From Oscillatoriaceae cyanobacterium Prado104 (lineage in GTDB: Bacteria; Cyanobacteriota; Cyanobacteriia; Cyanobacteriales; Microcoleaceae), in NCBI GenBank assembly GCA_025454405.1, contig JALOON010000042.1, forward strand, positions 25,334-89,333: 64,000 bases of DNA, in the 5' to 3' direction. Below are positions 10,172 to 36,327 of this stretch, piece after piece. Below the pieces are notes generated by a model. It saw only the letters and a program-made list of their open reading frames with translations, searched no databases and was not told where the DNA came from. The translations under genes and the position numbers were made by a program. The stretch's first letter is position 1. The number at the start of each line of letters is the position of its first letter.

Positions 10172-11452
10172 TTAACTTTGAGAAGCCAAGACAGGTTTTC
10201 CAGTCAATACAACCTGTTCGATAATATCAGCAGCTTTTTTCACACCGCCCGATCGCGCGATCGCCCCTTGCATCTCTATTGCCTTTTTTTTATAAGAATC
10301 TTGTGCCAGCACTTTCTCAACGCTCGATCGCAGTTTAGCAACGCTCAGTTGCTTCAAAGAAATCAGTTCGCCAACACCTGTATAAGCAATTCGTGCCGCC
10401 ACTCCTGGCTGGTCATTCGCCATAGGAATCGCTACCATCGGTACTCCATTTCTCAAAGATTCTAAAGTCGTATTCATCCCCGCATGAGTAATCGTAATAG
10501 TTGCTTTTTGCAACAGTTCTAATTGCGGTGCCAAGCCAACAACGATCGGATTTCCCGCTAATTTTGGCAAAGATTCTGGACTAGCACCACCGCCGAGATC
10601 GATGACTAATTGAGCGTCTAACCCTTCACAGGCAGAGGCAATTATTTGAAAAACATTTACCAAGCGATTTTGAATAGTTCCCATCGAGGCATAAATCAAT
10701 GGTTGACCAGTTAATTGTTCAAAAGGGAAAGGTACTGCTTGGCGCAGTGCAGGATTGTGATAATGACCGGTGAAATGAAAATGCGGCGGTAAACTTTGCC
10801 TGGGAAAATTAAATTCAGGCGGTTGCTGGCTGATTTGAGCGAGTTTAGAGTAATAATCGTTCGGGTAAGAATAGAGGGGCAAGTTCCACTCTTTGCGATA
10901 TTGGGCGATTGTCTTGCGAATCGGTTTGGCAAGCACTTCTACTAACTGAAAGCCGAGTCGATTGCGCCAGCGCCCTTGCCAAGTTGGAGTGTATTGCCAA
11001 GTAGTGAAAATAGGAGGAATGTTGGGTTCTCGATTCAGCATCAACCCACTACATATAGTTACAAAAGGAATGTTAAGAATGTCCGCAACCGTTCCTCCTT
11101 CCAATGAATATTGGTCTACAAGTAAAGCTGCTACACCTGCCTTTCTAATAGTGGTTGGTGCCTCTCTGAGCATCACAGCCGAAGTTTTTGGCACATTTTT
11201 AAGATTGTATTGCAGCGCCTTGAGTCCGCTGAGTTTCCCCATTTCGGTTAAGATTTTTGTACTGGCACCGAGGGGAAATTCATCTTCAGCTAATGCCTGA
11301 AATTCTAAACCGCTGGCTAGAGTTTTTGCTTTGGCATCAAGAAAGTTAAATACCGTAACTCGATGACCTCGGTGTAGGAGTTCGCTGCCCAAAGTTGTCA
11401 TGGTGTTGAGGTGGCCGATGGATGCCGGACAGAGAATGCCGAAGTGGGTCAT
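10172..11452 (-). CDS. GT1-family UDP-glycosyltransferase (MGT/CrtX zeaxanthin glucosyltransferase-like), copy 1
   Basis: A 426-aa ORF. The N-terminus MTHFGILCPASIGHLN...LHRGHRVTVF mirrors CrtX (MSHFAVIAPPFFSHV...ARGHRVTF). The C-terminal GT1 signature is THAGMNTTLESLRNGVPMVAIPMANDQ. Confidence 0.8.
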   Translation of the reverse strand: MTHFGILCPASIGHLNTMTTLGSELLHRGHRVTVFNFLDAKAKTLASGLEFQALAEDEFPLGASTKILTEMGKLSGLKALQYNLKNVPKTSAVMLREAPTTIRKAGVAALLVDQYSLEGGTVADILNIPFVTICSGLMLNREPNIPPIFTTWQYTPTWQGRWRNRLGFQLVEVLAKPIRKTIAQYRKEWNLPLYSYPNDYYSKLAQISQQPPEFNFPRQSLPPHFHFTGHYHNPALRQAVPFPFEQLTGQPLIYASMGTIQNRLVNVFQIIASACEGLDAQLVIDLGGGASPESLPKLAGNPIVVGLAPQLELLQKATITITHAGMNTTLESLRNGVPMVAIPMANDQPGVAARIAYTGVGELISLKQLSVAKLRSSVEKVLAQDSYKKKAIEMQGAIARSGGVKKAADIIEQVVLTGKPVLASQS

Positions 11453-11469: not shown

Positions 11470-11680
11470 AGTTAATTTTTTTGTAATATTATACCGATCG
11501 CAAATGATTTGTAAATATCTTGCTCTCTCCCCTTAATAAGGGGAGGGTTGGGGTGGGGTAAAAAATTTACAAATGATTTATGACTGCTATATACCGATTT
11601 GAGATTGGAAATTTGAGATTTGAGATTGAACTTCACAGCTTAGGTTATCGATTTGAGATTTGAGATTTAAGTTCCCAGCT
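11470..11680. repeat. Intergenic composite repeats: palindromic CCCCTTAATAAGGGG-GGGTTGGGGTGGGGT element plus GATTTGA heptamers
   Basis: The same ~60-nt element (tccccttaataaggggagggttggggtggggt) recurs at 42155-42200. Heptamer tandems occur at 11585-11680. Confidence 0.7.
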
Positions 11681-12960
11681 TAGATTTGAGCAGCCAAGAC
11701 AGGTTTTCCAGTCAAGATAACCTGTTCGATAATATCAGCAGCTTTCTTAACTGTGCCCGATCGCCCGATCGCCTTTTGCATCTCGATCGCCCTTTTTTTA
11801 TAATTCTCTTGTACCAGCACTTTCTCAACGGTCGATCGAACTTTATTCACGCTCAATTCCTTCAAAGCAACCACTTCACCAACACCTGTATAAGCAATCC
11901 GCGCCGCAATTCCCGGCTGGTCGTTCGCAATAGGAATTGCCACCATCGGTACTCCATTGCTCAACGATTCCAAAGTCGTATTCATCCCCGCGTGAGTAAT
12001 CGTGAGAGTGGCTTTTTGCAGCAGTTCCAATTGCGGTGCAAAACTAACAACTATCGGATTTCCCGGCAATGGCGGCAAAGATTCGGGACTCGCGCCTCCT
12101 CCCAGAGAAATTACCAATTGAGCATCTAAGTTTTCGCAAGCAGCAGCGAGGATTTGAAAAACATCCAACAAGCGATTTTGCACGGTTCCCATCGAAGCAT
12201 AAATCAACGGTTTGTCGGTTAATTGTTCAAAAGGAAAAGCAACTGGTTGTCGCGTTGCTGGGTTGTGAAACGGGCCGGTGAAATGAAAGTTTGGCGGTAA
12301 ATATTGCCTGGGAAAGTCGAATTCTGCCGGTTGTTGAGCGATCTGAGCGAGTTGAGAGTAATAATTTTCCGGGTCGGAGTACAAAGGTAATTTCCACTCT
12401 TTGCGATACTGGGCGATCGCATTTTGAATCGGCTTTGTCGCCAGTTCGATTAATCGATCTCCGAATTGATTGCGCCAGCGTGCTTGCCAAGTTGGACTGT
12501 ATTGCCAAGGAGTGCAAATCGGAGGAATGTTAGGTTCTCGATTCAGCATCAATGCACTGCAAACTGTGATAAAAGGAAGGTTTAGAAATTCTGCGATCGT
12601 TCCTCCTTCTATGGAAACTTGGTCTACCAGCAAAGCTTCTACACCGACTTTTTTAATAATAGCTGGAGCTTGTGAGAGAATCAGAGTTGAAACTTGCGCG
12701 ATTAAGTCGATCGTATATCGAAAAGCTGCCAATCCGCTAAGTTTTCCGAGTTTGCTCAAACTTTCTTGATTCCATCCCAAGGGAAACTCATTTTCAGCTA
12801 ATAGCTGGAATTCCAAGCCGCTTGCTAAGGTGGTGGATTCAGCATCGGGAAAACCAAATAAGGTGACTTGATGGCCTCGATGCAGCAATTCGCTACCTAA
12901 TGTTGTCATGGGGTTGAGGTGGCCGTTGGCTGTCGGACAGAGGATGCCGAAGTGAGTCAT
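11680..12960 (-). CDS. GT1-family UDP-glycosyltransferase (MGT/CrtX-like), copy 2 (tandem paralogue)
   Basis: A 426-aa ORF, collinear with and about 70% identical by eye to the 10172..11452 product over its full length. Confidence 0.8.
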   Translation of the reverse strand: MTHFGILCPTANGHLNPMTTLGSELLHRGHQVTLFGFPDAESTTLASGLEFQLLAENEFPLGWNQESLSKLGKLSGLAAFRYTIDLIAQVSTLILSQAPAIIKKVGVEALLVDQVSIEGGTIAEFLNLPFITVCSALMLNREPNIPPICTPWQYSPTWQARWRNQFGDRLIELATKPIQNAIAQYRKEWKLPLYSDPENYYSQLAQIAQQPAEFDFPRQYLPPNFHFTGPFHNPATRQPVAFPFEQLTDKPLIYASMGTVQNRLLDVFQILAAACENLDAQLVISLGGGASPESLPPLPGNPIVVSFAPQLELLQKATLTITHAGMNTTLESLSNGVPMVAIPIANDQPGIAARIAYTGVGEVVALKELSVNKVRSTVEKVLVQENYKKRAIEMQKAIGRSGTVKKAADIIEQVILTGKPVLAAQI

Positions 12961-13374: not shown

Positions 13375-14547
13375 ATGCAAGAGCGAGTTTTAAAAGAACG
13401 TTATGCCATCCAGAAAAGCTTGGGTAAAAATGCAGGTCGGCAAACTTTCCTAGCGCGAGACTTAGAAACTCAGCAATTAGTCGTCGTCAAAATCCTCACC
13501 TTTAGTGCAGATTTCCAATGGGACGATTTAAAACTATTTAAACGAGAAGCTGCAACCTTACAGTCACTTTCGCATCCGGGAATTCCCCGTTATTTAGATT
13601 GCTTTGAATTCGAGACACCAAAAACTAAAGGGTTGGCACTGGTACAAAGCTACATCGAAGCGAAATCCTTGGCGGAATGGGTGGAATCGGGACGGAGTTT
13701 TAACGAAGCCGAAATTAAGCAAATCGCTAAAAGCTTGCTGGAAATTTTGGTGTATTTGCAACAACAAAATCCGCCAGTAATTCATCGAGATCTTAAGCCG
13801 AGCAATATTTTATTAGCAGATAGATCGCCCGTCAAACAACACTCAGCGGTTCATAAAGGCAGTTTGTTGGGCGAAGTTTATTTAGTAGATTTTGGTTCGG
13901 TGCAAACCCTAGCAGCGAGAGAAGGTAGCACGGTTACTGTAGTGGGAACTTACGGATATATGCCGCCCGAACAATTTGGCGGGCGTGCGGTTCCGGCTTC
14001 GGATTTGTACGGTTTGGGTGCGACGTTAATTTACTTAGTAACGGGAGTCCATCCAGCCGATTTGCCGCAGGAGGATTTGCGGATTAATTTTGAGCCAAAA
14101 ATCCAGCTTAGTGCTGATTTTGTTGATTGGTTGCAGTGGATGACAGAACCGGATTTAAAAAGCCGCTTAACTGCGGCCGATCGAGCATTAAAAGCACTGG
14201 AAAAACCGGGAGAGGGGGGGCGTTCGGTCTTGGGAAAACCTGCTAAAAGCTGGGTAAAACTCAAGAAAACCCGGAATAGTTTGGAGATTGTGATACCTCC
14301 TTATCAACTATGTTCGGTTTTTATGTGTTATTTTTTGTTTTTTATTTCATTGCTAATTTTGTTTGTTTTATGGATAATATTTATTTTTAATGCGTGGTAT
14401 CTCTTTTTTTCGCGATATGAATTATTATTCTGGGCGATCGCGGTTATTTTAGGTGTGATTTCTGCGATATTTTTTATTGAATCGACTCTCAAAAAGTCTG
14501 CAAAATTCATCCGACTGCGGAACGTTATGCGATCGAGAAACAGCTAA
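13375..14547 (+). CDS. Membrane-anchored Ser/Thr protein kinase (Hanks-type), copy 1
   Basis: Kinase subdomains are visible: VVVKIL (subdomain II), HRDLKPSNILL (VIb), DFG (VII), and GTYGYMPPE (VIII). The hydrophobic, Phe/Ile-rich C-terminal TM region is encoded by an AT-rich tract (14300-14500). Confidence 0.85.
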   Translation: MQERVLKERYAIQKSLGKNAGRQTFLARDLETQQLVVVKILTFSADFQWDDLKLFKREAATLQSLSHPGIPRYLDCFEFETPKTKGLALVQSYIEAKSLAEWVESGRSFNEAEIKQIAKSLLEILVYLQQQNPPVIHRDLKPSNILLADRSPVKQHSAVHKGSLLGEVYLVDFGSVQTLAAREGSTVTVVGTYGYMPPEQFGGRAVPASDLYGLGATLIYLVTGVHPADLPQEDLRINFEPKIQLSADFVDWLQWMTEPDLKSRLTAADRALKALEKPGEGGRSVLGKPAKSWVKLKKTRNSLEIVIPPYQLCSVFMCYFLFFISLLILFVLWIIFIFNAWYLFFSRYELLFWAIAVILGVISAIFFIESTLKKSAKFIRLRNVMRSRNS

Positions 14548-14570: not shown

Positions 14571-15872
14571 TTGTTAGCGCGGGACTTGCAAACCCAAGAG
14601 TTAGTAGCGATTAAGTTACTAATTTTTGGGGAGGATGTTTGCTGGGATGACTTAAAGCTATTTGAAAGAGAAGCGCAAACTTTACAACAGCTTTCCCATC
14701 CGGCAATTCCCCGCTACCTGGATTACTTTGAAGTGGATGTGCCAACGGGTAAAGGATTTGCCTTGGTACAAAGCTATATCCAGGCTAAATCCTTAGAAGA
14801 ATGGTTAAAAAGCGGGCGAACATTTAGCGAAGCAGAAGTCAAGCAACTGGCTAAAGCATTACTAGAAATTTTGGACTATCTCCACGGGCAACAGCCGCCA
14901 GTTATTCACCGAGATATCAAGCCGAGTAATATTTTACTGGCAAACAGATCGGGCAATAGTGTCGGTGATGTTTATTTAGTTGATTTTGGTTCCGTACAGA
15001 CACTAGCAGCTAGAAAAGGCAGCACGATTACTGTTGTCGGTACTTACGGATATATGCCGCCCGAACAATTTGGCGGGCGAAATGTTCCCGCTTCCGATAT
15101 TTACAGTTTGGGTGCGACGTTAATTTATTTAGTAACGGGCAGGCATCCAGCCGAGTTATCCCAAGGTAATTTGCAAATTCAATTTGAGTCAACAGTCAAT
15201 CTCAATCCAGATTTAATTGCTTGGCTGAAGTGGATGACACAACCGAGTTTGAACCGCCGCCTTGCATCTGCAAAAGAGGCTATGGAAGCTTTGGAAAATC
15301 CCCGCCTGCCAACAGATATCTCGACGGTCAGACAAAAACCTTTTGGGAGTAAGATTGAAATGAAAAAAGATGGGGAGAATTTAGAGGTTGTAATTCCGCC
15401 CAAAAAGTTGACTTTTCGGAAATTCTACTGGATATTTGTAGGAACGTTTTTTTGCTTTGCGCAATTTTTATTTCCTTTTATCTGGATAAAACCCGTTCTT
15501 AAAGGTGCATTTTTCTTCATTATTCCATTTCTGGTGTTTTTACCACTTTGTTGGATCTTTGGCTTAGTCATTGGTTCTGTATTGTGGGAAAATCTCGTAA
15601 CTTTTTTCAGAGAAACTAGAATTAAGTTCGACGGTCAACAGATTTCTGTAACTCACCTGTGGCCTTGGTATCAATATCAGGTGGCTCCGATCGAGAAAAA
15701 ATCTATGATGCAAGGGAGTATGTATATTCGAGATTCCATGTTAGGTTACGTGTTTGATGAAAAATATTATGAGACTCTGAGAATTTCTCAAGCAACCCCT
15801 CCAGAAATAGAATGGTTGACCGAGGAAATAAGTGCTAGATCTAACGGAAAAATTACTGTGGCTTTTGCATAA
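14571..15872 (+). CDS. Membrane-anchored Ser/Thr protein kinase, copy 2 (tandem paralogue; 5' end uncertain)
   Basis: The ORF table begins at TTG 14571, but protein homology to copy 1 (ERYAIEKQLSQNAGRRTLLARDL) is encoded in the same frame from ~14517. No ATG/GTG/TTG start lies upstream after the in-frame TGA at 14478. This kinase retains an additional C-terminal soluble region that copy 1 lacks. Confidence 0.75.
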   Translation: MLARDLQTQELVAIKLLIFGEDVCWDDLKLFEREAQTLQQLSHPAIPRYLDYFEVDVPTGKGFALVQSYIQAKSLEEWLKSGRTFSEAEVKQLAKALLEILDYLHGQQPPVIHRDIKPSNILLANRSGNSVGDVYLVDFGSVQTLAARKGSTITVVGTYGYMPPEQFGGRNVPASDIYSLGATLIYLVTGRHPAELSQGNLQIQFESTVNLNPDLIAWLKWMTQPSLNRRLASAKEAMEALENPRLPTDISTVRQKPFGSKIEMKKDGENLEVVIPPKKLTFRKFYWIFVGTFFCFAQFLFPFIWIKPVLKGAFFFIIPFLVFLPLCWIFGLVIGSVLWENLVTFFRETRIKFDGQQISVTHLWPWYQYQVAPIEKKSMMQGSMYIRDSMLGYVFDEKYYETLRISQATPPEIEWLTEEISARSNGKITVAFA

Positions 15873-22013: not shown

Positions 22014-22543
22014 GATTTGTAAAGCGAGCGAACCTGGACGCTGCCGCCGGGAAGATTTAAAGTAGAAAGGAACCATCCACTCCGAGGCCTAGCAATGGTT
22101 TTTCAAGCAGAGTCAAGAGCAAAAACCAACTGTTTTTGGCCGGACAATCCGATTTCTGGCAGTATACTGGGATTGAGGAAGTGCGAGAAATTCGATCGAC
22201 CTCAAACATTTGATAGTTGACACTTGACAGTTGAGAGTCGATAGTAGAAGCGTGCGAGCGTCGGGAATTCGCGATGTCGGTCGTTGACTGTGAGGTTTGT
22301 CAACAGTTTATCTAGAACAGTTGACTTCCCAAACGCGAGGTTTTAAGACTCTAAAAGAAACAGTCCGCTGTCCGCTGTTAAGACGGGTTTTAAACCGGGC
22401 TAGCGAAAACTTTCCGGTTGGAGGGGTGGGGGCTAATAACCCTTAATATTTGGTCAAAGTTGTCATCAAAAATATTTTTGAGTTTTGAATTCAAGCAGCG
22501 ATCGCGCCTTTTAGCCAACAAATTTAATCCAAATTCTACAAAT

Positions 22544-25500
22544 ATGATAGCTCTTAACGGATATCAAATTACCGAAAAAGTTTACTCGGGAGCCAATACA
22601 GTTATTTACCGGGGAATCTGGCAAAAACAAAACGTGCCAGTCATCGTCAAAACCCTGAAAAGCGAGTATCCGACGCTCGAACAAATTACGAGATTGAGAC
22701 ACGAATCTAAAATTAGGAGGCAGCCAGAAGAGTTAAAAAATGTTGTCAACTTTTACCGTATTGAAAACTATTTAAATGGCATTGCATTAATCTTAGAAGA
22801 TTTTGGGGGAGTCGATTTAGCGCAGTATTTATCAACTGCCAAACTCAAGCTAAAAGATTTTTTGGCAATTGCCATTCAGCTAGCAAATGGTTTGGCGCAA
22901 ATTCACCAACATCAAATCATCCATAAGGATATTAAACCTCACAATATTATCATCAACCCGGAAACCGAGGAGGTGAAAATTACCGACTTCAGCATCGCCT
23001 CCCGTTTGGGAAGAGAAAGCGCAACTTCCAGCTATCCCAAATTTCTTGAAGGCAGTTTGGCCTATATGTCGCCGGAACAAACAGGTAGAATGAATCGCGT
23101 AATTGACTACCGCAGCGACTTCTATTCTTTGGGAGTGACTTTTTATGAAATGCTGATCGGTAAATTGCCGTTTAGCGCGAGCGATCCTTTAGAATTGGTA
23201 CACTGTCACATCGCTAAAATACCCGAATCTCCCCGCAGTTTAAATCCAGAAATTCCCGAGGTAATTTCTGGGATTGTCATGAAATTGCTGGCCAAAACAG
23301 CAGAAGACAGGTATCAAAGTGCCGAAGGTTTGAGATTTGACTTAGAAACCTGTTTGGCAAAGCTGGAAGCTAGCGAAAGTTTATCGGATTTTACTCCAGG
23401 CAAGGCCGATCGAGCGCGTCAATTAACGATACCTCAAAAACTCTACGGCAGAAACAATGAATTAGCTACTTTGATGAATGCTTTTAACCGCATCAGCGGT
23501 ACGGATTCTGCCTCAAATTCTGCCTCAACTAAGGGACGCTGCGGGGTAGAAATGATTCTGGTTTCTGGTTATTCCGGTATCGGCAAATCCTGCTTGGTAA
23601 ATGAAGTTCAAAAACCGATCGCGCGACAGCGGGGATATTTTATTTCTGGTAAATTCGACCAATTTAAGCGGAATATTCCTTATTATTCTCTGATTCAAGC
23701 ATTTCAATCATTAATTCGGCAACTGCTGACAGAAAGCGAAATTTCGATTTTGAGTTGGAAATACAAATTACTGGCAGCATTGGGTACTAAAGGTAAAGCA
23801 CTTGCCGAAATAATTCCCGAAATCGAACTGATTATCGGCAGGCAGTCTCCAGCCCCAAAACTAGGGGCGATCGAATCGCAAAATCGCTTCAATCAGGTAT
23901 TGAAACAATTTATTAGCGTATTTGCCACAAAAGAACACCCGCTAGTGATTTTTCTCGACGATTTGCAGTGGGGTGATGCAGCTTCGCTCAAATTAATAGA
24001 ACTGCTAATGAGCGACTCGGACAATAAATATTTGCTGCTCATTGGAGCTTATCGAGATAACGAAGTCAGTGCCGCCCACCCGCTGATTCAAACAGTAGAA
24101 AAAATTCAAGCAGCGGGCGCAACTGTCAATAATATTGTTCTCACTCCTTTGCGGTTAAATCATGTCGGTGAATTGATATGCGATACCCTAAATGAGGAAA
24201 ATCCGGTTTCCGAATTGACGGAATTGCTGTTTAACAAAACTCAAGGAAATCCTTTCTTTTTAACTCAGTTGCTAACAACACTTTATCAAGAAGATTTGTT
24301 AGTTTATGACTTGCAGCTTGGGAGTTGGCAGTGGGATATCGAGCGCATACAGGCGATCGGCATTACTGATTGCAATATTGTGGAGTTACTCGCTCGCAAT
24401 ATCAGAAAATTGCCCCCAGCAGTCCAGTCAGCCTTACAATTAGCGGCTTGTATCGGCAGCCAGTTTAATTTAGAAGTGCTGGCAGTTGTCAGTGAAAAAT
24501 CCCTGACGGAAACCGCATTAAACTTGTGGGATGCTCTTCAGGCAGGTTTGATATTGCCCGCGAGCAAAAATTATAAAATTCCGCTGGCTTTTGATGAAGA
24601 ACCAAGCTCTAGCGCCCTGCAAGATGTCAAAGTAGATTACAAATTCTTGCACGACAAAGTGCAGCAAGCAGCTTATTCTTTGATACCGGACGAAGAGAAA
24701 AGAGAAACTCACCTGAAAATCGGTCAATTGTTGCTGAAAAATACTCCCCCAGCAGCTCGAAAAGATTGCATTTTTGCTTTAGTAAACCAACTTAATTTTG
24801 GCATGAGAGCTACAGCAAAACCCATGAATTTCCTGTCGGGGGAATCCGAAAAATACGAGTTAGCTGAACTCAATTTAATTGCAGGTCAAAAAGCTAAAGC
24901 TGCCACGGCCTACGAAGCCGCTCTCAAGTATTTGAAAGTAGGTTTGGGACTGCTGAAATCGGAGTCTAGCTGGCAGAATCATTACCAGCTAACTTTCAAT
25001 CTATTTTTGGAGACAGCGGAAGCAGAATATCTCAATACTAATTTTGAGCGGGCGGAAACTTTAACTAATATTCTCTTGCGCCAAGCTGCCGACAGACTCG
25101 ATCGAGTCAAAGTTTTTGAGCTAAAAATCCAGATTTATGCAGTCCAAAATCAGATGCTCAAGGCCCTTACTACAGGACTGCAAGCTTTGGAGATGATGGG
25201 CATTTCTCGCTTGAAAATTTTAGATTACAACCGCCAGACAATCGCCCTGCCACTGTTGGAAGAAGTGGCAAAATTACCGGAAATGAAATCGCCGGAACAG
25301 CTAGCAATTATGAGGCTGTTGATGTCGATCACTTCCCCGGCTTTGAACGTCAAATCAAAAACTTTGCGCTCGATCGTCGTGACGCAAGTTAACCTCTGCA
25401 TCGAACAAGGTTATTCGGCACTAGCTGCTTTTTCCTATAGCTGGTACGGCACGATTTTGTGCGGGTCGATCGGAGATGTTGAAAAAGGTTATCATGCCGG

Positions 25501-28500
25501 ACAAATCGCTGTGAAGCTGTTGGATCGGTTTGATGCGAGTTTAATTAAATGCCAAGTTTTAAATATGTTTAACGGTTTTATCAAACCGTGGAAAACCCAC
25601 GCGAGAGAAACCCTCGATCCGTTACAGGAAGGGTTTCAAAGTGGCATGGAAGTGGGCGATTTAATTTATGCTGGCTTCAATGCTTTAAACCGCTGCATTT
25701 ATACTTTTCTCGTGGGAGACAAACTAGATTTATTAGATCGAGAGCTAGAAGGATACATCGATCTGTTTCAGAAAAACCGGGTAGTTTTTTTGCTGCCTAT
25801 TTTTGATATCTGGAAGCAAGTAAAAATCAATTTGCAGGGTTTGTCCTTCGATAAATACCGCTTGATGGGCGAACATTTTAATGAAAGCTTTGTGTTGGAA
25901 AAAATGCAGGTAGAGCGTCAAGAAGATTGGACGCTGTTTAACTTTTACTTGGCAAAACAAATCATTTGTTATTTATTTAAAGATGCTGCGGGTGCCGTTG
26001 CTAATGCTTCGCTAGCTCGAGAATGCCTGCAATCTGCCGGCGGATCGATGCTGCTAGCAATACACAATTTTTACCAGTCCCTGGCTTTGCTGGCCGACTG
26101 CGAACAATTAGCGGCAAGCGAACGGGAAAAACGCATCGCTAGAGTGAATATCAATCAAGCAAAAATGCACGAATGGGCCCACAAAGCACCGATGAATTAC
26201 CAGCATAAATACGATTTAGTAGAGGCTGAAAAATGGCGGGTGTTGGGAGAAAAATACCGGGCAATGGATTATTACGATCGCGCGATCGAAAAGGCTGCCC
26301 AACAGGGATACATTCAGGAAGCAGCCCTCGCCAACGAATTAGCTGCGGAGTTTTATCTATCTCAAGGCAAAGAAAAAATTGCTAAATCTTACATGACTGA
26401 TGCTTATTACGGCTATATCCGCTGGGGCGCAAATGCTAAAGTTGCAGATTTAGAAGTCAGATATCCGCAGTCGATCGTCCGCACTCCAGAAGCTGGAAAT
26501 TCCACAAAAAGCGATCGAACTCTTGCCGGAACTTCTGTAACTGCTACCACCCACCAAGGAAGTTTCGATTTTGCTTCGGTGATGAAAGCATCTCTTGCTA
26601 TTTCTGGAGAAATAGTTCTAGATTCTTTGCTAGAAAAATTGATGGTAATTTTGCTAGAAAATGCGGGTGCTGAAAATGGCTGCCTGATCGTCCCAAAAGA
26701 TGGCGAATTTATCGTTGAAGCTGAGGTAAAAGTGGGTACTAGAGTCAAAGTTATGCGCTCTTTGATGTCCCTGGGAGGCGAGGCAATACCCTGTTCCTAC
26801 CCGCAAGCTGCGATCAATTATGTCAATCGAACTTGGGAAGATGTAGTTTTAAATGATGCCAGCAGCGAGGCAATGTTTAATAGCGACCCCTACATCGTTC
26901 AATACCAGCCCAAATCACTGCTGTGCTTGCCGATCGTCTATCAAGGCAAATTAAATGCTATCCTTTATTTGGAAAACAATTTGACAGTTTGTGCTTTCGG
27001 ACCGGAGCATTTGGAAGTTTTGAAAATCCTGTCTTCTCAAGCCGCGATCGCCCTAGAAAATGCTCGGCTTTACGCTAACTTGGAAGCGGCAAACCAAAAA
27101 TTAGAAGAATACAATTCTAATCTGGAAAAGAAAGTAGAAGAACGCACCCAACAATTGCACGAAAAAAATGCCCTGCTGTTTCAAGAAATTAAAGAAAGAC
27201 AAAAAGCTGAAGCCGAAGCTAAAGCAGCAAGTCTGGCTAAAAGTGAATTTTTAGCTAACATGAGTCACGAATTCCGCACCCCCCTCAACGGCATTTTAGG
27301 ATACGCTCAAATCTTCAAGCGAGACAAACAATTGACGCCGCAGCAACAAGATGGAATTCGCGTCATCCAGCGATGTGGCGAACATTTGCTAGAGTTAATC
27401 GGGGATATTTTAGATATTTCTAAAATTGAAGCGAGGAAAATGGAACTGGTAGTCACAGAGTTTGATTTTTCCGAATTCATTCACAGCATCAATGAAATAT
27501 TTCGGATCAAAGCCAATCAAAAAGGCATCGCTTTTAACTGCAAATTCCAGTCCTCTATGCCGCGGGCGATCGCAGCCGATGAAAAGAAACTGCGCCAAAT
27601 TTTGATTAATTTAATTGGCAATGCAGTGAAGTTTACGGAAACTGGTGGAGTTACCTTCAAAATTTTAGCAACCAATTGTCCGACAGGCGGGGACGAGCAT
27701 GAAGCAGCAACACCAAAAGTGAGGATTCGCTTTCAAATTGAAGATACTGGAATTGGCATTGCTGCGGATGAATTGTCAAAAATATTTTCACCTTTTGAAC
27801 AGGTAGGAAACACTCGCAGCCAGACTGAAGGCACGGGATTGGGATTAGCAATTAGCAGACAATTAGTAGAGATTATGGGTGGCGAAGTTAAAGTCAAAAG
27901 CGTTTTGGGAAGAGGCAGCATTTTCTACTTTGAATTGGACTTGAGGGAAGTTAAGAAAGAGGAACACAAAAAGTTTTATGAAAAAACTATTAAAGGTTTC
28001 AGCGGTGCCAAGAAAAAAATTTTAGTAGCTGACGACAAGTGGGAAAATCGATCGGTATTCGTCCAACTGCTCGCACCCTTAGGTTTTGAAATAATTGAGG
28101 CAGCCGACGGTCAAGAATGCGTGGATAAAGCGAGAGAATTTCAACCGGATTGTATCTTAATGGATTTAGTCATGCCGGTGATGGACGGCTTTGAAGCAGT
28201 GCGGCAAATTCGCAAGTTGCCCGAGTTGCAAAATGTCGTGACGATCGGCACTTCTGCCAGCATTTTAGAATCCCAAAAGCAGGTAAGTTTGACCGCAGGA
28301 TGCAATGCTTTCCTCGCTAAGCCGATCCGCGCTGAGGAGCTTTTTGATTGCTTGCAAATCCATTTAGGTTTAGAATGGATTTGTGAAGAATTGCAGGAAG
28401 AAAATGCTGAGCTTGAAAGTTCCGATCTCCAAATTTTCAACAGTTCATCTTCGATCGCGCAGCAAGAAACGATCGCCCCTCCTCCGGAAGAGATAGCCGT

Positions 28501-28672
28501 ACTCTTTGAGCTAGCGATGATGGGAGATCTGGGAGGAATTCAAAAGCAAGCAGAAAAATTGGCAAAAAAGGATGTTAAATATGTTAACTTTGCCAGAAAA
28601 CTGATGCAGCTAGCTAAAGATTTTGACGAACAAAAAATATTAGAATTAGTGGAACAATATAGGAACCAGTAA
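22544..28672 (+). CDS. HstK-type giant signalling protein: Ser/Thr kinase, AAA/NACHT-like P-loop ATPase, helical repeats, GAF, histidine kinase (HisKA+HATPase_c), receiver, plus C-terminal extension
   Basis: Kinase motifs HKDIKPHNIII, DFS and SLAYMSPEQ; Walker A ILVSGYSGIGKSCLVNEV; GAF domain; H-box LANMSHEFRTPLNGI; G-boxes EDTGIGIAADE...GTGLGLAISRQL; receiver domain ILVADD...LMDLVMPVMDG...AKP. The start is set at ATG 22544 (MIALNGYQI). The table ORF starts 42 codons upstream in non-conserved sequence. Confidence 0.85.
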   Translation: MIALNGYQITEKVYSGANTVIYRGIWQKQNVPVIVKTLKSEYPTLEQITRLRHESKIRRQPEELKNVVNFYRIENYLNGIALILEDFGGVDLAQYLSTAKLKLKDFLAIAIQLANGLAQIHQHQIIHKDIKPHNIIINPETEEVKITDFSIASRLGRESATSSYPKFLEGSLAYMSPEQTGRMNRVIDYRSDFYSLGVTFYEMLIGKLPFSASDPLELVHCHIAKIPESPRSLNPEIPEVISGIVMKLLAKTAEDRYQSAEGLRFDLETCLAKLEASESLSDFTPGKADRARQLTIPQKLYGRNNELATLMNAFNRISGTDSASNSASTKGRCGVEMILVSGYSGIGKSCLVNEVQKPIARQRGYFISGKFDQFKRNIPYYSLIQAFQSLIRQLLTESEISILSWKYKLLAALGTKGKALAEIIPEIELIIGRQSPAPKLGAIESQNRFNQVLKQFISVFATKEHPLVIFLDDLQWGDAASLKLIELLMSDSDNKYLLLIGAYRDNEVSAAHPLIQTVEKIQAAGATVNNIVLTPLRLNHVGELICDTLNEENPVSELTELLFNKTQGNPFFLTQLLTTLYQEDLLVYDLQLGSWQWDIERIQAIGITDCNIVELLARNIRKLPPAVQSALQLAACIGSQFNLEVLAVVSEKSLTETALNLWDALQAGLILPASKNYKIPLAFDEEPSSSALQDVKVDYKFLHDKVQQAAYSLIPDEEKRETHLKIGQLLLKNTPPAARKDCIFALVNQLNFGMRATAKPMNFLSGESEKYELAELNLIAGQKAKAATAYEAALKYLKVGLGLLKSESSWQNHYQLTFNLFLETAEAEYLNTNFERAETLTNILLRQAADRLDRVKVFELKIQIYAVQNQMLKALTTGLQALEMMGISRLKILDYNRQTIALPLLEEVAKLPEMKSPEQLAIMRLLMSITSPALNVKSKTLRSIVVTQVNLCIEQGYSALAAFSYSWYGTILCGSIGDVEKGYHAGQIAVKLLDRFDASLIKCQVLNMFNGFIKPWKTHARETLDPLQEGFQSGMEVGDLIYAGFNALNRCIYTFLVGDKLDLLDRELEGYIDLFQKNRVVFLLPIFDIWKQVKINLQGLSFDKYRLMGEHFNESFVLEKMQVERQEDWTLFNFYLAKQIICYLFKDAAGAVANASLARECLQSAGGSMLLAIHNFYQSLALLADCEQLAASEREKRIARVNINQAKMHEWAHKAPMNYQHKYDLVEAEKWRVLGEKYRAMDYYDRAIEKAAQQGYIQEAALANELAAEFYLSQGKEKIAKSYMTDAYYGYIRWGANAKVADLEVRYPQSIVRTPEAGNSTKSDRTLAGTSVTATTHQGSFDFASVMKASLAISGEIVLDSLLEKLMVILLENAGAENGCLIVPKDGEFIVEAEVKVGTRVKVMRSLMSLGGEAIPCSYPQAAINYVNRTWEDVVLNDASSEAMFNSDPYIVQYQPKSLLCLPIVYQGKLNAILYLENNLTVCAFGPEHLEVLKILSSQAAIALENARLYANLEAANQKLEEYNSNLEKKVEERTQQLHEKNALLFQEIKERQKAEAEAKAASLAKSEFLANMSHEFRTPLNGILGYAQIFKRDKQLTPQQQDGIRVIQRCGEHLLELIGDILDISKIEARKMELVVTEFDFSEFIHSINEIFRIKANQKGIAFNCKFQSSMPRAIAADEKKLRQILINLIGNAVKFTETGGVTFKILATNCPTGGDEHEAATPKVRIRFQIEDTGIGIAADELSKIFSPFEQVGNTRSQTEGTGLGLAISRQLVEIMGGEVKVKSVLGRGSIFYFELDLREVKKEEHKKFYEKTIKGFSGAKKKILVADDKWENRSVFVQLLAPLGFEIIEAADGQECVDKAREFQPDCILMDLVMPVMDGFEAVRQIRKLPELQNVVTIGTSASILESQKQVSLTAGCNAFLAKPIRAEELFDCLQIHLGLEWICEELQEENAELESSDLQIFNSSSSIAQQETIAPPPEEIAVLFELAMMGDLGGIQKQAEKLAKKDVKYVNFARKLMQLAKDFDEQKILELVEQYRNQ

Positions 28673-28675
28673 ACA

Positions 28676-30109
28676 ATGAGCACTTTACTCTTAGAACAGG
28701 GCGTGATATTAATCGTTGACGACAACCCAAACAACTTAGCATTTTTGTTTGACTTTTTGACTGAATTGGGTTTCAAAGTATTGGTGGCGCGCACGGGAGA
28801 AAGTGCTCTGAAAAAAGTAGAATATTCACCGCCTGATTTGATTTTATTGGATGTAATCATGCCGGAAGTTGACGGCTTTGAAACTTGCAGGCGCTTGAAA
28901 GCAAATCCAGCGGCAAAAGAGATTCCGGTAATTTTTATGACGGCGCTCAACAGTACGGAAGATAAGGTGAAAGCATTTAGTGTCGGTGCAGTTGATTACG
29001 TCACTAAGCCGATTCAAAATGAAGAAGTTTTAGCTCGCGTCAAAGCACATTTGAGTATCAGCCGGCTGACTAGAAAACTTCAGGAACAAAACATTCAAAT
29101 GCAGCAGGAAATTACCGATCGAAAACAAGCTCAAGCTAACCTGCGGCAGTTGGCAGAACAGTTAGAAAAACGAGTAGCAGAGCGAACTGCAGAACTTTCC
29201 CAAACGAACGATCGGCTGCAAGCGCAGGTTAAAGAGCGACAGCAAATGCAGGAGAGTTTGTATCAATCTTTGCAGGAACTCCAGCAAACTCAAATCCTGC
29301 TCGTTCAAAATGAAAAAATGTCGGCTTTGGGGCGGATGCTGGTAGGTATCGCTCGCGAAATTAACGATCCGGTCAATTTCCTTTACGGCAATCTCGCTCG
29401 GGTGCGAGATTCCACCCAAAGCATCCTCAATCTACTGGATCTTTACCAGCAAAGTTATCCTCAGCCAGCACCAGCGATCGAGCTGCAACAGATTGCTGAA
29501 GATTTGCGAAAAGTTTTGGAATCGATGCAAGCAGGAGGCGATCGAATTCGAGATCTCGTTCGTTCCCTGCGCTTTTTTTCGCGGCAAGAAGGGGAGGAAA
29601 TGAAGCCGATCGACATTCACGAATGTCTCGACAACACTCTGATGATTTTGCAAGCTCGACTCAAACCCCAACTGCACCGATCGGCGATTGAAGTAATTAA
29701 AAATTACTATCCAAATTTGCCAAGCGTAGAGTGCTACAGCGGAGAAATCAGTCAAGTATTTATGAATATTTTAACTAACGCGATCGATGCGATTGAACAA
29801 TCCAGCAGCTTGACAAATGACGGAACAATTGCAGCAGAGAGCGATCGAATTCGGATCGTTACTGAACTCAGCAACTGCAACAGTATAATTATTAGAATTG
29901 CTGACACTGGGGCGGGGATTGCAGAGGAAGTGCGAGATCTGATATTTGACCCCTTTGTGACTGCCAAACCAGCGGGCAAAGGTACGGGAATCGGGCTATC
30001 AATTAGTTGGTATATTATAGTAGAAAAACACGGCGGTAGCTTGCAGTGCATTTCCACATCAACTGAGGGGACTGAATTTGCGATCGAACTGCCAATTTCG
30101 CAGCAATAA
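28676..30109 (+). CDS. Hybrid receiver / histidine-kinase-like protein with Arg in place of the phospho-acceptor His (IAREINDP)
   Basis: Canonical receiver domain (ILIVDDNPN...LILLDVIMPEVDG...TKP), a coiled coil, and a HisKA-like region in which codon 227 is CGC (Arg) where the paralogue at 6306 has CAC (His, AHEINNP). The HATPase_c region is intact (IADTGAGI...GKGTGIGLSIS). The gene starts 4 nt after the stop of the HstK gene. Confidence 0.8.
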   Translation: MSTLLLEQGVILIVDDNPNNLAFLFDFLTELGFKVLVARTGESALKKVEYSPPDLILLDVIMPEVDGFETCRRLKANPAAKEIPVIFMTALNSTEDKVKAFSVGAVDYVTKPIQNEEVLARVKAHLSISRLTRKLQEQNIQMQQEITDRKQAQANLRQLAEQLEKRVAERTAELSQTNDRLQAQVKERQQMQESLYQSLQELQQTQILLVQNEKMSALGRMLVGIAREINDPVNFLYGNLARVRDSTQSILNLLDLYQQSYPQPAPAIELQQIAEDLRKVLESMQAGGDRIRDLVRSLRFFSRQEGEEMKPIDIHECLDNTLMILQARLKPQLHRSAIEVIKNYYPNLPSVECYSGEISQVFMNILTNAIDAIEQSSSLTNDGTIAAESDRIRIVTELSNCNSIIIRIADTGAGIAEEVRDLIFDPFVTAKPAGKGTGIGLSISWYIIVEKHGGSLQCISTSTEGTEFAIELPISQQ

Positions 30110-30182: not shown

Positions 30183-30336
30183 AGTTTTGAGTTGTGAATT
30201 AAGAACTGTCTTTAACTCAAAACTCAAAACTCCTTACGAACTATCTTTAACTCAAAACTCAAAACTCAAAACTCAAAACTCCCGCAAACTGTCTTTAACT
30301 CAAAACTCAAAACTCAAAACTCAAAACTCAAAACTC
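30183..30336. repeat. Composite STRR-like repeat block (aactgtctttaactcaaaactcaaaactc units)
   Basis: Tandem units of the family GAGTTTTGAGTTTTGAGTTAAAGACAGTT, here in reverse-complement orientation. The inverted partner block is at 32007-32272. Confidence 0.85.
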
Positions 30337-30756
30337 CTGAGAATCGTCTCGTTCTTGATAATCTTCAGCCGACATCGGGTCTAATTCCCAGCGACTTTCA
30401 TCTCGATTTTCTAGCATATCTGCTGCGTGCAACATCTCCCCTTCATCCATTTCTATCCCAGCAGCAGCCCCGAGTTCGTCAACAATATCTTGGTCTGGAG
30501 TAGGCGTGCTGCCGCCTACATCTTCCTCACCGCTGGCACTTACTTTTTCACCTGCAGAACCGACATTGCCGCCGTTGAGATTGAGAGTGGTTAAGCTGTC
30601 TTCTAAATTGCTGTCATCCAAATCTGCATCTTTTTCACTAAGTTCCGTTTTGTCGATAACTCCGGTGCCGTAGGATTCGGTAATTACTTGAGGCAATTCA
30701 GAGGAATCATTGCTTTCTTCTGTTGCTTTTGATGCTGTTTTTTTGCGCTGTGCCAC
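30328..30756 (-). CDS. Acidic hypothetical protein (Asp/Glu-rich, low complexity)
   Basis: A 142-aa ORF. Its last two codons are supplied by the heptamer repeat. No domain recognised. Confidence 0.4.
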   Translation of the reverse strand: MAQRKKTASKATEESNDSSELPQVITESYGTGVIDKTELSEKDADLDDSNLEDSLTTLNLNGGNVGSAGEKVSASGEEDVGGSTPTPDQDIVDELGAAAGIEMDEGEMLHAADMLENRDESRWELDPMSAEDYQERDDSQEF

Positions 30757-34107: not shown

Positions 34108-36327
34108 ATGCAGTTAATTAATTATTTGACTTCTGTTTTCGGCGTAATTTGGCAGAATAGTGTTTTTCACTGGGTGGCGCTAATTTTGCTGGGCGTTGCT
34201 GTTTGGGGCGAGTATGCTGCAGTGAAGCAGTATCAGGATTATGTTAAAGCAAAAAGCCGATCGACTGCTGAGGCGATCGGTTATTTAAGTTCTAAGTTAG
34301 AAAGCGGTACGATCGGGGCGATGGAACTGCGACAGTGGGAAACTCCAGCAGATACTTGGACGCTGCTTTTAGATTGGTTTAGCGAACATTTGGCAGGAGA
34401 AACAATTGCAGGCGGCGATGCTTACAAAACTCAGGTTAGATCCGGGCGGTTCGTGTTGTTTCAATATCCGGCTATATTAACTCGATCGGCCCCTCGGAGT
34501 CAGTGGCGGTTCGTACCCAGCATTTTAGTAGCGCTGGGGGTTTTAGGTACATTTTACGGCATTCAAACCGGGTTGCAAAATGTTAGTTTGGGCGGGCTGC
34601 AAGATACTAAAGAATTGCTGCCATCGATCGACACTTTACTGGAAGGAATGAAAACAGCTTTTTCAACTTCCTTGATGGGTTTGGGTGCGTCTAGCGTATT
34701 TACAATTGTTTTAGCTTGGGGCGATCGCGCGCGCGTTGCATACCAATCCAACTTGCGCGCCAAATTCGATCGAATCGCCAAATTGCAAACACCAGAACAA
34801 CTGCTTGCGGTTGCCAATTCCAGCAGCGATATAGTCGGCGCGATTGCCCTTGCTACCGAAACAATGCAAGCAGGATTCCTGCAAGTTATCGAGGCTCAAA
34901 GTAATGTTAACTCGCAGGCGATCGGGCAGCAAATCGGTGTAGCAATGACGCCAGTTTTTCAAGAAATCCGCCAGGAATTATCGACACTCCAACAGATTAA
35001 AGCAGACCAAGGAGAAGAGATATTAAACAACTTGCTTTCAGGCCTGTGCGTCCAAGTAATCGAACCCGTAGTTGCGCGGTTGGATAGCAGCGCCCAACTC
35101 ACTCACGAAGCATCCGAAGCTGTCAGAGAATTAAAGAACGAATTGGGCGGAATTTCTGCAAGTTTAGCGCAATCTATCCTGACAATTCAAACATTCCAAC
35201 AAGATACATTAGTACAGTTGCAAGAATTTGCCAACAACTTGCAGCAAATTTTAAAACAGTTTCAAACCGACACCCACGACGTATTGCAAGAAATGGCAAC
35301 CGAAATTCGATCGGGCGTTGGCGAAAGTATTGAAGGCATGAAAGCCCAAAGAACAGCCTTCCAAGAAAGCGCCCAAGAAGCAGCCAATACTTTTAGAGGA
35401 ATTCAGGACAACTTGCAAGCATCACTCCACACTCAAGCAGAACAAGAAAAGGCAATGCTAGAAGGTGTGGAAGCCAGAATGACCAACATTTTAAATGCGA
35501 CTCACTCTGCTTTTCAAACGCAGTCAGATACGATTAAAGCAGTAGGCGATGAAGCTTCGGGATTGATGGATAAAGCGCGAGAAAATTTGGTTGGTAGCTT
35601 GCAGAATGTTGACGGAATGCTGCAAAAAACTCGCGTTACGGTGCAACAAGAACTAGATAAATTCCGGGTGACATATCAAGCGTCACTCCAGCAGTTTTTT
35701 ACCGAACAAAACAACTTGCTGGAAGGAACGTTAGGCAAACAGCAAAAAGGTTTAGCGCAGGTAGTTCTGGGTTTGCAAAAAGTATTTCAAGAAGAATCCG
35801 AGAAGCGCAAATTGATGTCGCAGCAAGTTGACGAAAGCATGGAGAAAATTTTGACAACAGCGGCAGAAGTGAGTCAGTTTGCCAACTCTGTGGGGTTGAA
35901 TTCCAGCCAGCGGTTGGCGCAATTGCAGGAACTAGCTAAATTAACGGGACAGGAAGTATTGCGGGTAGAAAGCGTTTACGAAAAAATGGCGAATCAATTC
36001 AATACAGAGGGGGAAAGATTGCAAACTACTTATACCAACTTGGTGACTCAATTAAATGCAGCTTTGCAAGCGGAACAAGAACAAGTGAGGCGGGTTGAGA
36101 GTGCGTATCAAAACATGACAAATCAGTTCGATCGGGCTTTGGAATTGGGGAATGAGAGATTGATTGGCTATTTGGAAAGAACTACTTCATCGCAGCACAA
36201 GTTTTTTGAAGAAGCCGATAATTCGATGGCGAAAGTGTGCAGCGGGTTGCAAGAAAGTTCCGACGGTTTGATGCAGGTTGCGCATTATTTGGTGGCGGCT
36301 GCAGATAATTTGGGGACGAAGAAATGA
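34108..36327 (+). CDS. MotA/TolQ/ExbB-family proton-channel protein with ~500-aa C-terminal coiled-coil tail (ZorA-like architecture)
   Basis: Three TM helices with the MotA/ExbB signature in the last two (ILVALGVLGTFYGIQTGL ... LLEGMKTAFSTSLMGLGASSVFTIVLAW). These are followed by ~520 residues of Gln/Glu/Leu-rich heptad-type sequence lacking Pro or Gly breaks. Confidence 0.7.
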   Translation: MQLINYLTSVFGVIWQNSVFHWVALILLGVAVWGEYAAVKQYQDYVKAKSRSTAEAIGYLSSKLESGTIGAMELRQWETPADTWTLLLDWFSEHLAGETIAGGDAYKTQVRSGRFVLFQYPAILTRSAPRSQWRFVPSILVALGVLGTFYGIQTGLQNVSLGGLQDTKELLPSIDTLLEGMKTAFSTSLMGLGASSVFTIVLAWGDRARVAYQSNLRAKFDRIAKLQTPEQLLAVANSSSDIVGAIALATETMQAGFLQVIEAQSNVNSQAIGQQIGVAMTPVFQEIRQELSTLQQIKADQGEEILNNLLSGLCVQVIEPVVARLDSSAQLTHEASEAVRELKNELGGISASLAQSILTIQTFQQDTLVQLQEFANNLQQILKQFQTDTHDVLQEMATEIRSGVGESIEGMKAQRTAFQESAQEAANTFRGIQDNLQASLHTQAEQEKAMLEGVEARMTNILNATHSAFQTQSDTIKAVGDEASGLMDKARENLVGSLQNVDGMLQKTRVTVQQELDKFRVTYQASLQQFFTEQNNLLEGTLGKQQKGLAQVVLGLQKVFQEESEKRKLMSQQVDESMEKILTTAAEVSQFANSVGLNSSQRLAQLQELAKLTGQEVLRVESVYEKMANQFNTEGERLQTTYTNLVTQLNAALQAEQEQVRRVESAYQNMTNQFDRALELGNERLIGYLERTTSSQHKFFEEADNSMAKVCSGLQESSDGLMQVAHYLVAAADNLGTKK

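Follow-up and report, generated by a model that had tools for sequence, protein, structure and literature searches.

The stretch of DNA analysed here (the window) comprises 64,000 nucleotides of Oscillatoriaceae cyanobacterium Prado104 (contig JALOON010000042.1, positions 25,334 to 89,333) and carries two signalling genes in immediate succession on the forward strand, to which all coordinates refer unless a strand is given. The first, open reading frame (ORF) A (22544(ATG)..28672, with an alternative TTG start at 22418), encodes 2042 aa from the ATG and is an HstK-type (cbSTKIII) dual Ser/Thr-His kinase. The second, ORF B (28676..30109), encodes a receiver-controlled histidine-kinase homologue (Rec-HK) of 477 aa without a phospho-acceptor His. 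A preliminary description of the locus had given ORF A about 2040 aa with a Ser/Thr kinase, a P-loop NTPase, helical repeats, a GAF domain, a histidine kinase (HK), a receiver and a tail, and this was confirmed in length and, by Pfam, in domain content, the tail measuring 106 aa. It had also placed the start of ORF B 4 nt after the stop of ORF A; the TAA occupies 28670-28672, a 3-nt spacer (ACA, 28673..28675) follows, and the A of the ATG at 28676 is indeed the fourth base past the stop. A purine-rich AGGA is found ~12 nt upstream of this ATG.

ORF B opens with a receiver (residues 11-122; 28706..29041; Pfam Response_reg, E 5.8e-30, 104 bits) in which D15, D16, D59, T89, Y108 and K111 are intact and invariant in a 34-sequence alignment. 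The receiver is followed by a signalling helix (alphaS, a putative coiled coil, residues ~123-212; 29042..29311), which in the AlphaFold2 (AF2) model is continuous with helix 1 of the DHp domain (residues 213-306; 29312..29593). In the DHp domain the pivot G219 and E228 are kept, R227 stands for His and D231 for Asn, and the hairpin 261-269 is shortened. The catalytic ATP-binding (CA) domain occupies residues 310-475 (29603..30100), with HATPase_c at residues 358-475 (9.7e-21, 74.7 bits); its N-box (N364/N368), G1 box (D410-x-G-x-G) and G2 box (GTGIGL) are intact, and its F-box reads FDPFVT with the change F428V. Apart from this F-box residue, the canonical receiver and intact ATP-binding domain claimed earlier are thus both present, with the DD, D and K residues and the N, G1 and G2 boxes in place. 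The AF2 model (mean pLDDT 76.8) predicts a receiver, a single helix of residues 115-260 that contains R227, a loop at 261-269, a helix at 270-303 and the CA domain at 310-473, which is the receiver - long helix - DHp hairpin - CA layout of a Rec-HK.

The codon at the phospho-acceptor position (CGC, 29354-29356) specifies R227 in an H-box that reads IAREINDP; this reading, and that of a paralogue at 6306-7556 (+) with IAHEINNP and CAC at 6783-6785, are as first reported. When the DHp-CA half of ORF B was compared with the PDB by phmmer, IAREINDP was aligned to the H-boxes of CckA (5idj), LvrB (8vc9, H161 by count along the alignment) and ZraS (9jfj), with vgiAReindp of ORF B standing against ggvAHdfnn, tmAHEINNP and gvAHEIRNP, respectively; R227 therefore occupies the phospho-acceptor position, as had been proposed. 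In LvrB, H161 is the phosphorylated residue and the H161A variant is completely inactive (PMC13269768). The HisKA (PF00512) score of ORF B is 19.9 bits, under the gathering score of 26.9, compared with 31.2 for the paralogue and 76.5 for ORF A. An acceptor at a different, conserved His, which the preliminary description had raised as the alternative, was looked for and is excluded, because ORF B has only four His residues (125, 315, 334 and 452) and none of them in the signalling helix and DHp domain (residues 126-314). Judged from its sequence, ORF B would be incapable of HisKA-type autophosphorylation at the canonical site.

Among the 120 best homologues of ORF B, the acceptor column holds His in 116 and Arg in four, namely P0001, which is identical to ORF B, and three proteins at 88, 86 and 84% identity, the four representing separate 90%-identity clusters. 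The three other Arg proteins derive from JGI 3300081922 and 3300081959, a Logan run, and the NCBI Microcoleus metagenome-assembled genome (MAG) GCA_051652045.1. Arg is encoded by CGC in the window and locus L003 and by CGG in locus L001, and CAC takes its place in all His-bearing orthologues; the synonymous divergence (dS) among the window, L001 and L003 is 0.44-0.64. The preliminary description had left room for a G/A sequencing error or strain polymorphism, in which case the real protein would be an ordinary His-bearing Rec-HK, and it is true that CAC to CGC is only a single transition and that the source is a MAG (the identical P0001, 'Oscillatoriaceae cyanobacterium Prado104'). However, Arg recurs in three more clusters drawn from other samples, once as CGG, and comes with clade-specific changes nearby. 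Because Arg occurs in independent assemblies, encoded by either codon and at such synonymous distances, we regard an assembly error or private polymorphism of this MAG as practically excluded. The examination of orthologues at this codon suggested earlier gave a divided answer, with CGC or CGG throughout the Arg clade and CAC in those positional orthologues whose identity does not exceed 75%. The change is limited to a single young clade, which consists of the window and its three relatives at 84-88% identity, and, by parsimony, would represent one A-to-G transition (CAC to CGC) on the stem of that clade.

Further changes accompany the Arg. A screen for positions whose residue is shared by 95% or more of 109 remoter His-bearing homologues and replaced in every member of the Arg clade yielded H227R, N231D/E, Y246S and F272Q/K, and three further changed positions (G100A, Q220R and V222L) are common to the sister clade. 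The segment between DHp helices 1 and 2 is 25 residues long in the Arg clade vs. 31-32 in 116 of 116 others, a 7-residue deletion that is placed at the DHp hairpin because the AF2 loop 261-269 lies there. Also restricted to the Arg clade are the Val for the third Phe of the F-box FDPFFT (F428V) and the loss of a short C-terminal extension. The pivot G219, E228 (one residue past the acceptor, H+1), P232 (H+5), the receiver residues and the N, G1 and G2 boxes were all kept. Of the strongly conserved positions, 52/53 are retained in the receiver, 45/50 in the CA domain and 20/30 in the DHp domain, where the sister clade retains 19/30. This clade-specific package in the DHp domain and the F-box suggests that the kinase core has shifted in function, rather than that a single neutral change took place.

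One of these positions, H+4, bears on whether ORF B could serve solely as a phosphatase, with its kinase activity off and its phosphatase activity on, acting on a response regulator or on the receiver of HstK. For such a role it can be said that H+1 Glu (E228) and H+5 Pro are kept, and that some HisKA kinases with a substituted His, such as NtrB and EnvZ mutants, keep phosphatase activity. In addition, the symmetric state of LvrB has been proposed as a phosphatase form (PMC13269768). On the other hand, of the 116 His-bearing homologues 111 have Asn at H+4, the others being four sister-clade sequences with Lys and one sequence with Asp, and every Arg-bearing sequence has Asp or Glu there (Asp in ORF B, D231; Glu in two relatives). 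The HisKA phosphatase motif following the His is D/ExxT/N (PMC12963549), and ORF B, which has E228 and an Asp at H+4, does not conform to it. A phosphatase-only function is weakened by N231D/E and no candidate substrate regulator is encoded nearby; we consider it rather doubtful.

Comparisons within the Arg clade record evolution after the loss of the His (omega by Nei-Gojobori). In this clade omega is 0.15-0.17 for the whole gene, 0.03-0.06 for the receiver, 0.05-0.11 for the linker, 0.14-0.30 for the DHp domain and 0.19-0.30 for the CA domain. Among His-bearing orthologues, whole-gene omega is 0.18-0.20 at larger divergences and 0.11-0.12 in the closest pairs (L008/L009/L010), the corresponding DHp values are 0.23-0.35 and 0.04-0.06, and the CA domain gives 0.20-0.24 throughout. 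The ratio pN/pS in the Arg clade is 0.27-0.32 for DHp and CA combined (Fisher p 6e-13 to 5e-20) and 0.26-0.36 for CA, and the per-domain values of DHp and CA span 0.17-0.37 (p<=7e-5). No burst of rate was seen on the Arg lineage (dN from the outgroup L005 to the window vs. from L005 to the sister L004: 0.202/0.187 at all sites, 0.223/0.258 in DHp), and no frameshift or stop was found in any member of the Arg clade. Because DHp and CA were under purifying selection after the His was lost, the kinase-like half of ORF B appears still to be functionally constrained and decay of the gene is unlikely.

One alternative is that ORF B is kinase-dead and on its way to a pseudogene, with DHp-CA irrelevant and the receiver alone in use, as a sink for phosphate from HstK. 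In line with this idea, constraint is by far strongest in the receiver, the Arg clade lacks the C-terminal extension and has a changed F-box Phe, and the His-less relatives P0215 and P0234 have decayed ATP-binding motifs. Against it, purifying selection on DHp and CA after the loss is as strong as in His-bearing orthologues, and the bulk of the conserved CA positions with every N, G1 and G2 box residue is kept in uninterrupted frames. The selection acting on DHp-CA weakens the receiver-only sink in particular, and we find this alternative quite unlikely. Of the roles suggested for ORF B in the preliminary description, that of a pseudokinase is thus supported by conservation and selection, as far as sequences can tell, and that of a phosphatase is disfavoured by the Asp/Glu at H+4.

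To place this clade within its family, the wider survey searched 1.84 billion cluster representatives and took the best 150 family members. The acceptor residue is His in 143 of them, Tyr in three, Arg in one and Ser in one, with two unalignable. All four non-His representatives retrieved (three Tyr, one Arg) have Rec-HK architecture. The ATP-binding boxes are intact in the Tyr proteins P0205 and P0224 and degenerate in the Tyr protein P0234; in the Arg protein P0215 (L088:8001-9392, Logan DRR496536), which lies directly behind a GAF-HK-REC hybrid kinase and overlaps its 3' end by 8 nt, the N and G2 boxes are degenerate. The Ser representative, P0227, is 1321 aa long. With a residue other than His in about 3% of these 150 representatives, loss of the acceptor His is recurrent in this family.

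The two genes had been described as a signalling unit, and the arrangement holds well beyond the window: HstK followed by Rec-HK, with a gap of 3-7 nt or a 4-nt overlap, recurs as a tight pair in nine other loci. The spacer is 3 nt in L001, L002 and L003 and 4-7 nt in L004, L005 and L008-L010, and the genes overlap by 4 nt in L006. Positional orthologues of ORF B with HstK directly upstream are 74% identical in L004, which represents the sister clade, 66-68% in L005 and L008-L010 (Microcoleus/Tychonema) and 59% in L006/L007 (Kamptonema), and the pair is therefore conserved across Microcoleus, Tychonema, Kamptonema and relatives. Of these, only L008-L010 were found as close orthologues in the genome-contig scan for ORF B relatives, whose peptide patterns were too specific. 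The surroundings are shared in part, with BPD_transp_1 upstream of HstK in L001, L003, L004 and L005, DUF6335 downstream in L001, and a 138-aa ORF and a 503-aa amine oxidase downstream in L005, each as in the window. The promoter/terminator scan gave one promoter-like site upstream of ORF A (22217-22245) and no promoter- or terminator-like site at the A/B junction; sites were fewer than in shuffles, and the result carries no weight in either direction. The two genes form a conserved signalling module in filamentous Oscillatoriales and are probably co-translated. Pairs of a hybrid kinase and a downstream Rec-HK also occur with other sensor types, in L011, L012, L088 and L017 (a non-cyanobacterial MAG); in L088 two such pairs follow one another, dCache-HAMP-HK-REC + Rec-HK and GAF-HK-REC + Rec-HK. 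When HstK was scanned for co-evolution with its partner, by way of positions invariant in six orthologues with a His partner and altered in all three of the Arg clade, 17 of 924 positions were returned, none in HisKA and three in the receiver, which in nine sequences is no convincing signal.

The closest known system, which the preliminary description did not recognise, is that of the Rec-controlled kinases LvrA->LvrB, part of the LvrA->LvrB->LvrC pathway of pathogenic Leptospira, in which LvrB is the prototype of the Rec-HKs, as a 2026 study calls this architecture (PMC13269768). There, LvrA activates LvrB through D56, the CA domain is freed, and phosphate is put on H161 and from there handed on to LvrC (PMC13269768). 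LvrB and ORF B have in common the Rec - signalling helix - DHp - CA architecture, the pivot glycine (G153 in LvrB, G219 in ORF B), the receiver Asp and Tyr, and an upstream hybrid kinase (HK + receiver) as partner; moreover, LvrB (8vc9) is the second-best solved match to the DHp-CA half of ORF B (E 1.6e-19, MAHEINNP over IAREINDP). They differ in that the essential H161 of LvrB is replaced by Arg in ORF B, the signalling helix of ORF B is ~40 residues longer, ORF B has L91 and no counterpart of T86, the additional Thr of the 'inverse Y-T switch', its partner is an HstK (STK-AAA_16-GAF...) instead of a PAS kinase, and no LvrC-like target was identified. ORF B scores 132 bits against the NCBIfam LvrB model (NF047466), whose cut-off is 500, and is therefore not an LvrB orthologue.

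Cumulatively, these observations lead us to favour, as the fairly likely explanation, that ORF B is a maintained histidine pseudokinase in an HstK module, one that continues to accept phosphate at D59 and signals independently of His~P. The ancestral form, an HstK-type dual kinase with a downstream Rec-HK that is still widespread, would most likely have worked in an LvrA->LvrB-like manner: the upstream hybrid kinase would put phosphate on the Asp of the downstream receiver (D59 here), the phospho-receiver would zip the signalling helix and release the CA domain, the CA domain would phosphorylate the DHp His, and the phosphate would move onward to an unlinked response regulator. In the lineage of the window, His to Arg together with the H+4 Asp/Glu, the hairpin deletion, Y246S, F272Q/K, F428V and loss of the C-terminal extension would have left a protein in which D59 can still be phosphorylated and ATP can still be bound, with no His~P at the canonical site. 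Its most likely output would be conformational signalling dependent on phospho-Asp. ORF B would bind ATP and serve HstK, or another kinase, as a partner, scaffold or feedback regulator in a DivL-like manner, and its receiver may also buffer some phosphate. That HstK donates the phosphate to D59, that ORF B does not autophosphorylate, and what form the output takes are points that we infer.

Several observations weigh against this interpretation. The full conservation of the catalytic Glu, E228, and the ATP-binding boxes would fit phosphoryl transfer to something rather than a purely structural role. The sister His-bearing clade has already diverged in the DHp domain (HEINKP in 4/7, 19/30 DHp positions kept) and part of the package of changes is therefore older than the loss of the His. 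The case for direct phosphotransfer from HstK to ORF B is drawn from their adjacency and the likeness to LvrA/LvrB, and the receiver of HstK itself could be the main phosphate acceptor. Finally, the persistence of Arg in the three sampled members speaks only weakly for selection on Arg itself; by our own estimate, a single codon evolving neutrally along the Arg-clade tree would keep its amino acid in about 1 case in 5.

Keeping in mind that the catalytic set is complete, continued catalysis toward another acceptor is conceivable, and ORF B might form a heterodimer with a paralogous kinase and phosphorylate the His of that kinase, or it might transfer phosphoryl to Arg227 or to a Ser, Thr or Tyr of a partner. 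E228, N364, D410-x-G-x-G and the G2 box are conserved under selection, and it is only in the Arg clade that the DHp hairpin, which sets cis vs. trans geometry of autophosphorylation, is 7 residues shorter; many paralogous Rec-HKs exist besides, one of them in the window. However, histidine-kinase heterodimers are rare, and the paralogue in the window is only 34% identical; nor do we know of any GHKL enzyme that makes phospho-arginine. The other relatives without His carry Tyr, Ser or Arg at this site, and in the one with Arg the CA domain is degenerate, which fits loss of an acceptor rather than gain of a new one. We judge continued phosphoryl transfer unlikely, and within it Arg227 is far less likely to be the acceptor than the His of a partner kinase in a heterodimer.

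Known histidine pseudokinases offer the nearest parallels to a maintained, His-less ORF B. DivL of Caulobacter, which has Tyr at the His position (PMC4211667, bioRxiv 10.1101/812529), is like ORF B an acceptor-less histidine-kinase homologue with a folded DHp-CA, and Tyr at this position is also found in three relatives of ORF B. DivL senses a phosphorylated receiver and regulates another kinase ('reverse signalling'; PMC4211667, bioRxiv 10.1101/812529). It differs from ORF B in having PAS sensors and no fused receiver, its partner receiver DivK being separate, whereas ORF B carries its receiver in the same chain; DivL is also ancient and essential in alphaproteobacteria, whereas the ORF B pseudokinase is young and clade-restricted, and binding or regulation of a kinase by ORF B would be suggested by analogy. 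The hybrid histidine pseudokinase PsmA of Streptomyces (PMC12963549) resembles ORF B in having no H-box His and no D/ExxT/N motif and in being conserved within its lineage. In contrast to ORF B, which keeps all ATP-binding boxes, has Arg in all four clusters and places its receiver first, PsmA has degenerate ATP-binding motifs with a fold seemingly incompatible with ATP, its residue at the His position varies between species, and its kinase core comes first and its receiver last. RocA is another known histidine pseudokinase (PMC7028121). Two further systems can be likened to the locus by description, and their families and contexts differ from those of HstK/ORF B: as outlined in the respective accounts, phosphate flows from kinase to kinase onto the receiver of a receiver-kinase hybrid in CheA3/CheS3 of Rhodospirillum centenum (PMC3868531), and the kinase-like RedE takes part in RedCDEF of Myxococcus without being the primary autokinase (PMC2755868).

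The part of ORF A that adjoins ORF B is its C-terminal tail (28352..28669; 106 aa), a ~44-residue linker predicted to be disordered and a ~60-residue segment (28484-28663) that AF2 models as a four-helix bundle with pLDDT 80-87. These last ~60 residues are conserved in all orthologues. The tail gave no Pfam match even at E<=1, a PDB profile search with it returned matches at chance level only (none below E 0.3), and two homologue searches returned nothing beyond short pieces of orthologous C-termini. A hidden Markov model (HMM) of the tail, for which 77 distant receiver/kinase loci from the genome-contig scan served only as background, matched only hybrid kinases directly upstream of Rec-HK genes, three non-HstK sensor types included, in a sample that was itself chosen through Rec-HK. 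The order HK - receiver - small helical bundle is that of the unorthodox kinases with HPt domains (ArcB, BarA, TorS, RcsD/YojN); compared with those domains, the tail of ORF A has ~60 instead of ~110 residues, no sequence similarity and no His at all, and so no HxxKG-type conserved phosphorylatable His. It is HPt-like in its predicted fold only. A Glu taking the place of the HPt His was considered and rejected, the aligned position being Val or Lys in other tail-bearing kinases. We offer as a lead, and not as a finding, that the tail may be a His-less HPt-like docking module for the partner receiver.

Two bolder proposals follow from these features, and we hold them to be highly improbable. 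In the first, ORF B would phosphorylate Arg227, forming a phospho-arginine phosphoramidate that could be passed to Asp, which, if true, would be a third chemistry for two-component-type kinases on the GHKL/DHp scaffold. In the second and milder one, docking by the HstK tail would act as a code that pairs hybrid kinases with Rec-HKs, and would represent, if true, a previously undescribed pairing code common to several sensor types.

The significance of the locus lies in several directions. Rec-HKs are common and barely understood, and the first mechanism for one, that of LvrB, dates from as late as 2026; of histidine pseudokinases only a handful of cases are known, to which ORF B would add a new and young one that stands out for its intact ATP site and its close His-bearing orthologues. 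The positional orthologues, 59-88% identical and located behind the same HstK with or without the acceptor His, amount to a natural experiment, and swapping R227 and H227 between close orthologues would show what a Rec-HK does without His~P. HstK dual kinases, themselves poorly understood, gain a concrete conserved partner. There is also a small practical effect on annotation: current names for ORF B are 'response regulator' or 'hybrid sensor histidine kinase', and autokinase activity should not be taken for granted.

With respect to ORF A itself, the start is the Met at 22544, and an equivalent Met starts all orthologues (L001, L003-L006 and L008-L010; 60-88% identical). The N-terminal Hanks-type Pkinase domain (residues 7-261; 22562..23326; Pfam 1.2e-38, 133.5 bits) has K36, the catalytic D129 (HKDIKPHN), D148 (DFS) and SPE all in place; its Gly-rich loop (22562-22640, residues 7-33) reads YSGANTVIYRG instead of GxGxxG and does so in all orthologues. 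An AAA_16 P-loop NTPase (residues 299-500; 23438..24043; Pfam 1.9e-36; Walker A GYSGIGKS with K348) comes next. Between kinase and AAA_16, the HstK orthologues of L005 and L008 carry tandem low-complexity insertions (PPQPPLVKGGL.E-type repeat units, up to ~70 residues), which align to residues ~320-330 of ORF A and are absent from the window protein. The long helical region that follows (residues 501-1358; 24044..26617) has one weak TPR_CHK1-like match at residues 1170-1278 (PF25503, E 0.0017, under the curated cut-off). The GAF domain (residues 1359-1505; 26618..27058; Pfam 1.5e-12, 48.7 bits) is located between the two kinase domains, the second of which consists of HisKA (residues 1565-1630) and HATPase_c (residues 1679-1801; together 27236..27946; Pfam, 76.5 and 93.2 bits) and has its phospho-acceptor H1575 in SHEFRTPLN (codon 27266-27268), kept in all orthologues. 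The receiver (residues 1826-1936; 28019..28351; Response_reg, Pfam 6.3e-21) has D1874 (28163-28165) and K1926.

By this composition ORF A falls within the published definition of HstK/cbSTKIII, which calls for a Hanks kinase, one or more GAF domains and a His kinase at the C-terminus (PMC2176072). It has the N-terminal Hanks kinase, GAF domain and C-terminal His kinase in common with Alr2258 (HstK) and Pkn40/Pkn41 described there, and unlike them it adds AAA_16, the long helical repeats, the receiver and the His-less tail. It also differs in its downstream Rec-HK partner, alr2259 beside hstK being given in that work as a plain Ser/Thr kinase (PknB; PMC2176072). In NCBIfam every model stayed below its cut-off for ORF A and ORF B alike, and neither therefore receives an equivalog name; the HK-REC part of ORF A comes nearest to TorS, BarA and ArcB, and ORF B has weak matches, far below cut-off, to EspC/EspA.

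As for the remainder of the window, the ORF B paralogue at 6306-7556 lies alone between MutS2 (-) and a Band 7 gene (-). Its CA domain is intact, its receiver is weak (36 bits, with AD for the acidic DD pair and Ala at the Thr position) and its linker is very short, which is the reverse of the pattern seen in ORF B. Downstream of the module, a DUF6335 gene (30328-30756, -) is convergent to ORF B, and a 739-aa ORF (34108-36327, +) has no Pfam match. About 7 kb upstream of HstK there are two adjacent Hanks-type kinase genes (13375-14547 and 14571-15872, both +; Pkinase 3e-34 and 2e-36). Two tandem 426-aa UDP-glycosyltransferase paralogues (UDPGT / EryCIII-like) occupy 10172-11452 (-) and 11680-12960 (-).

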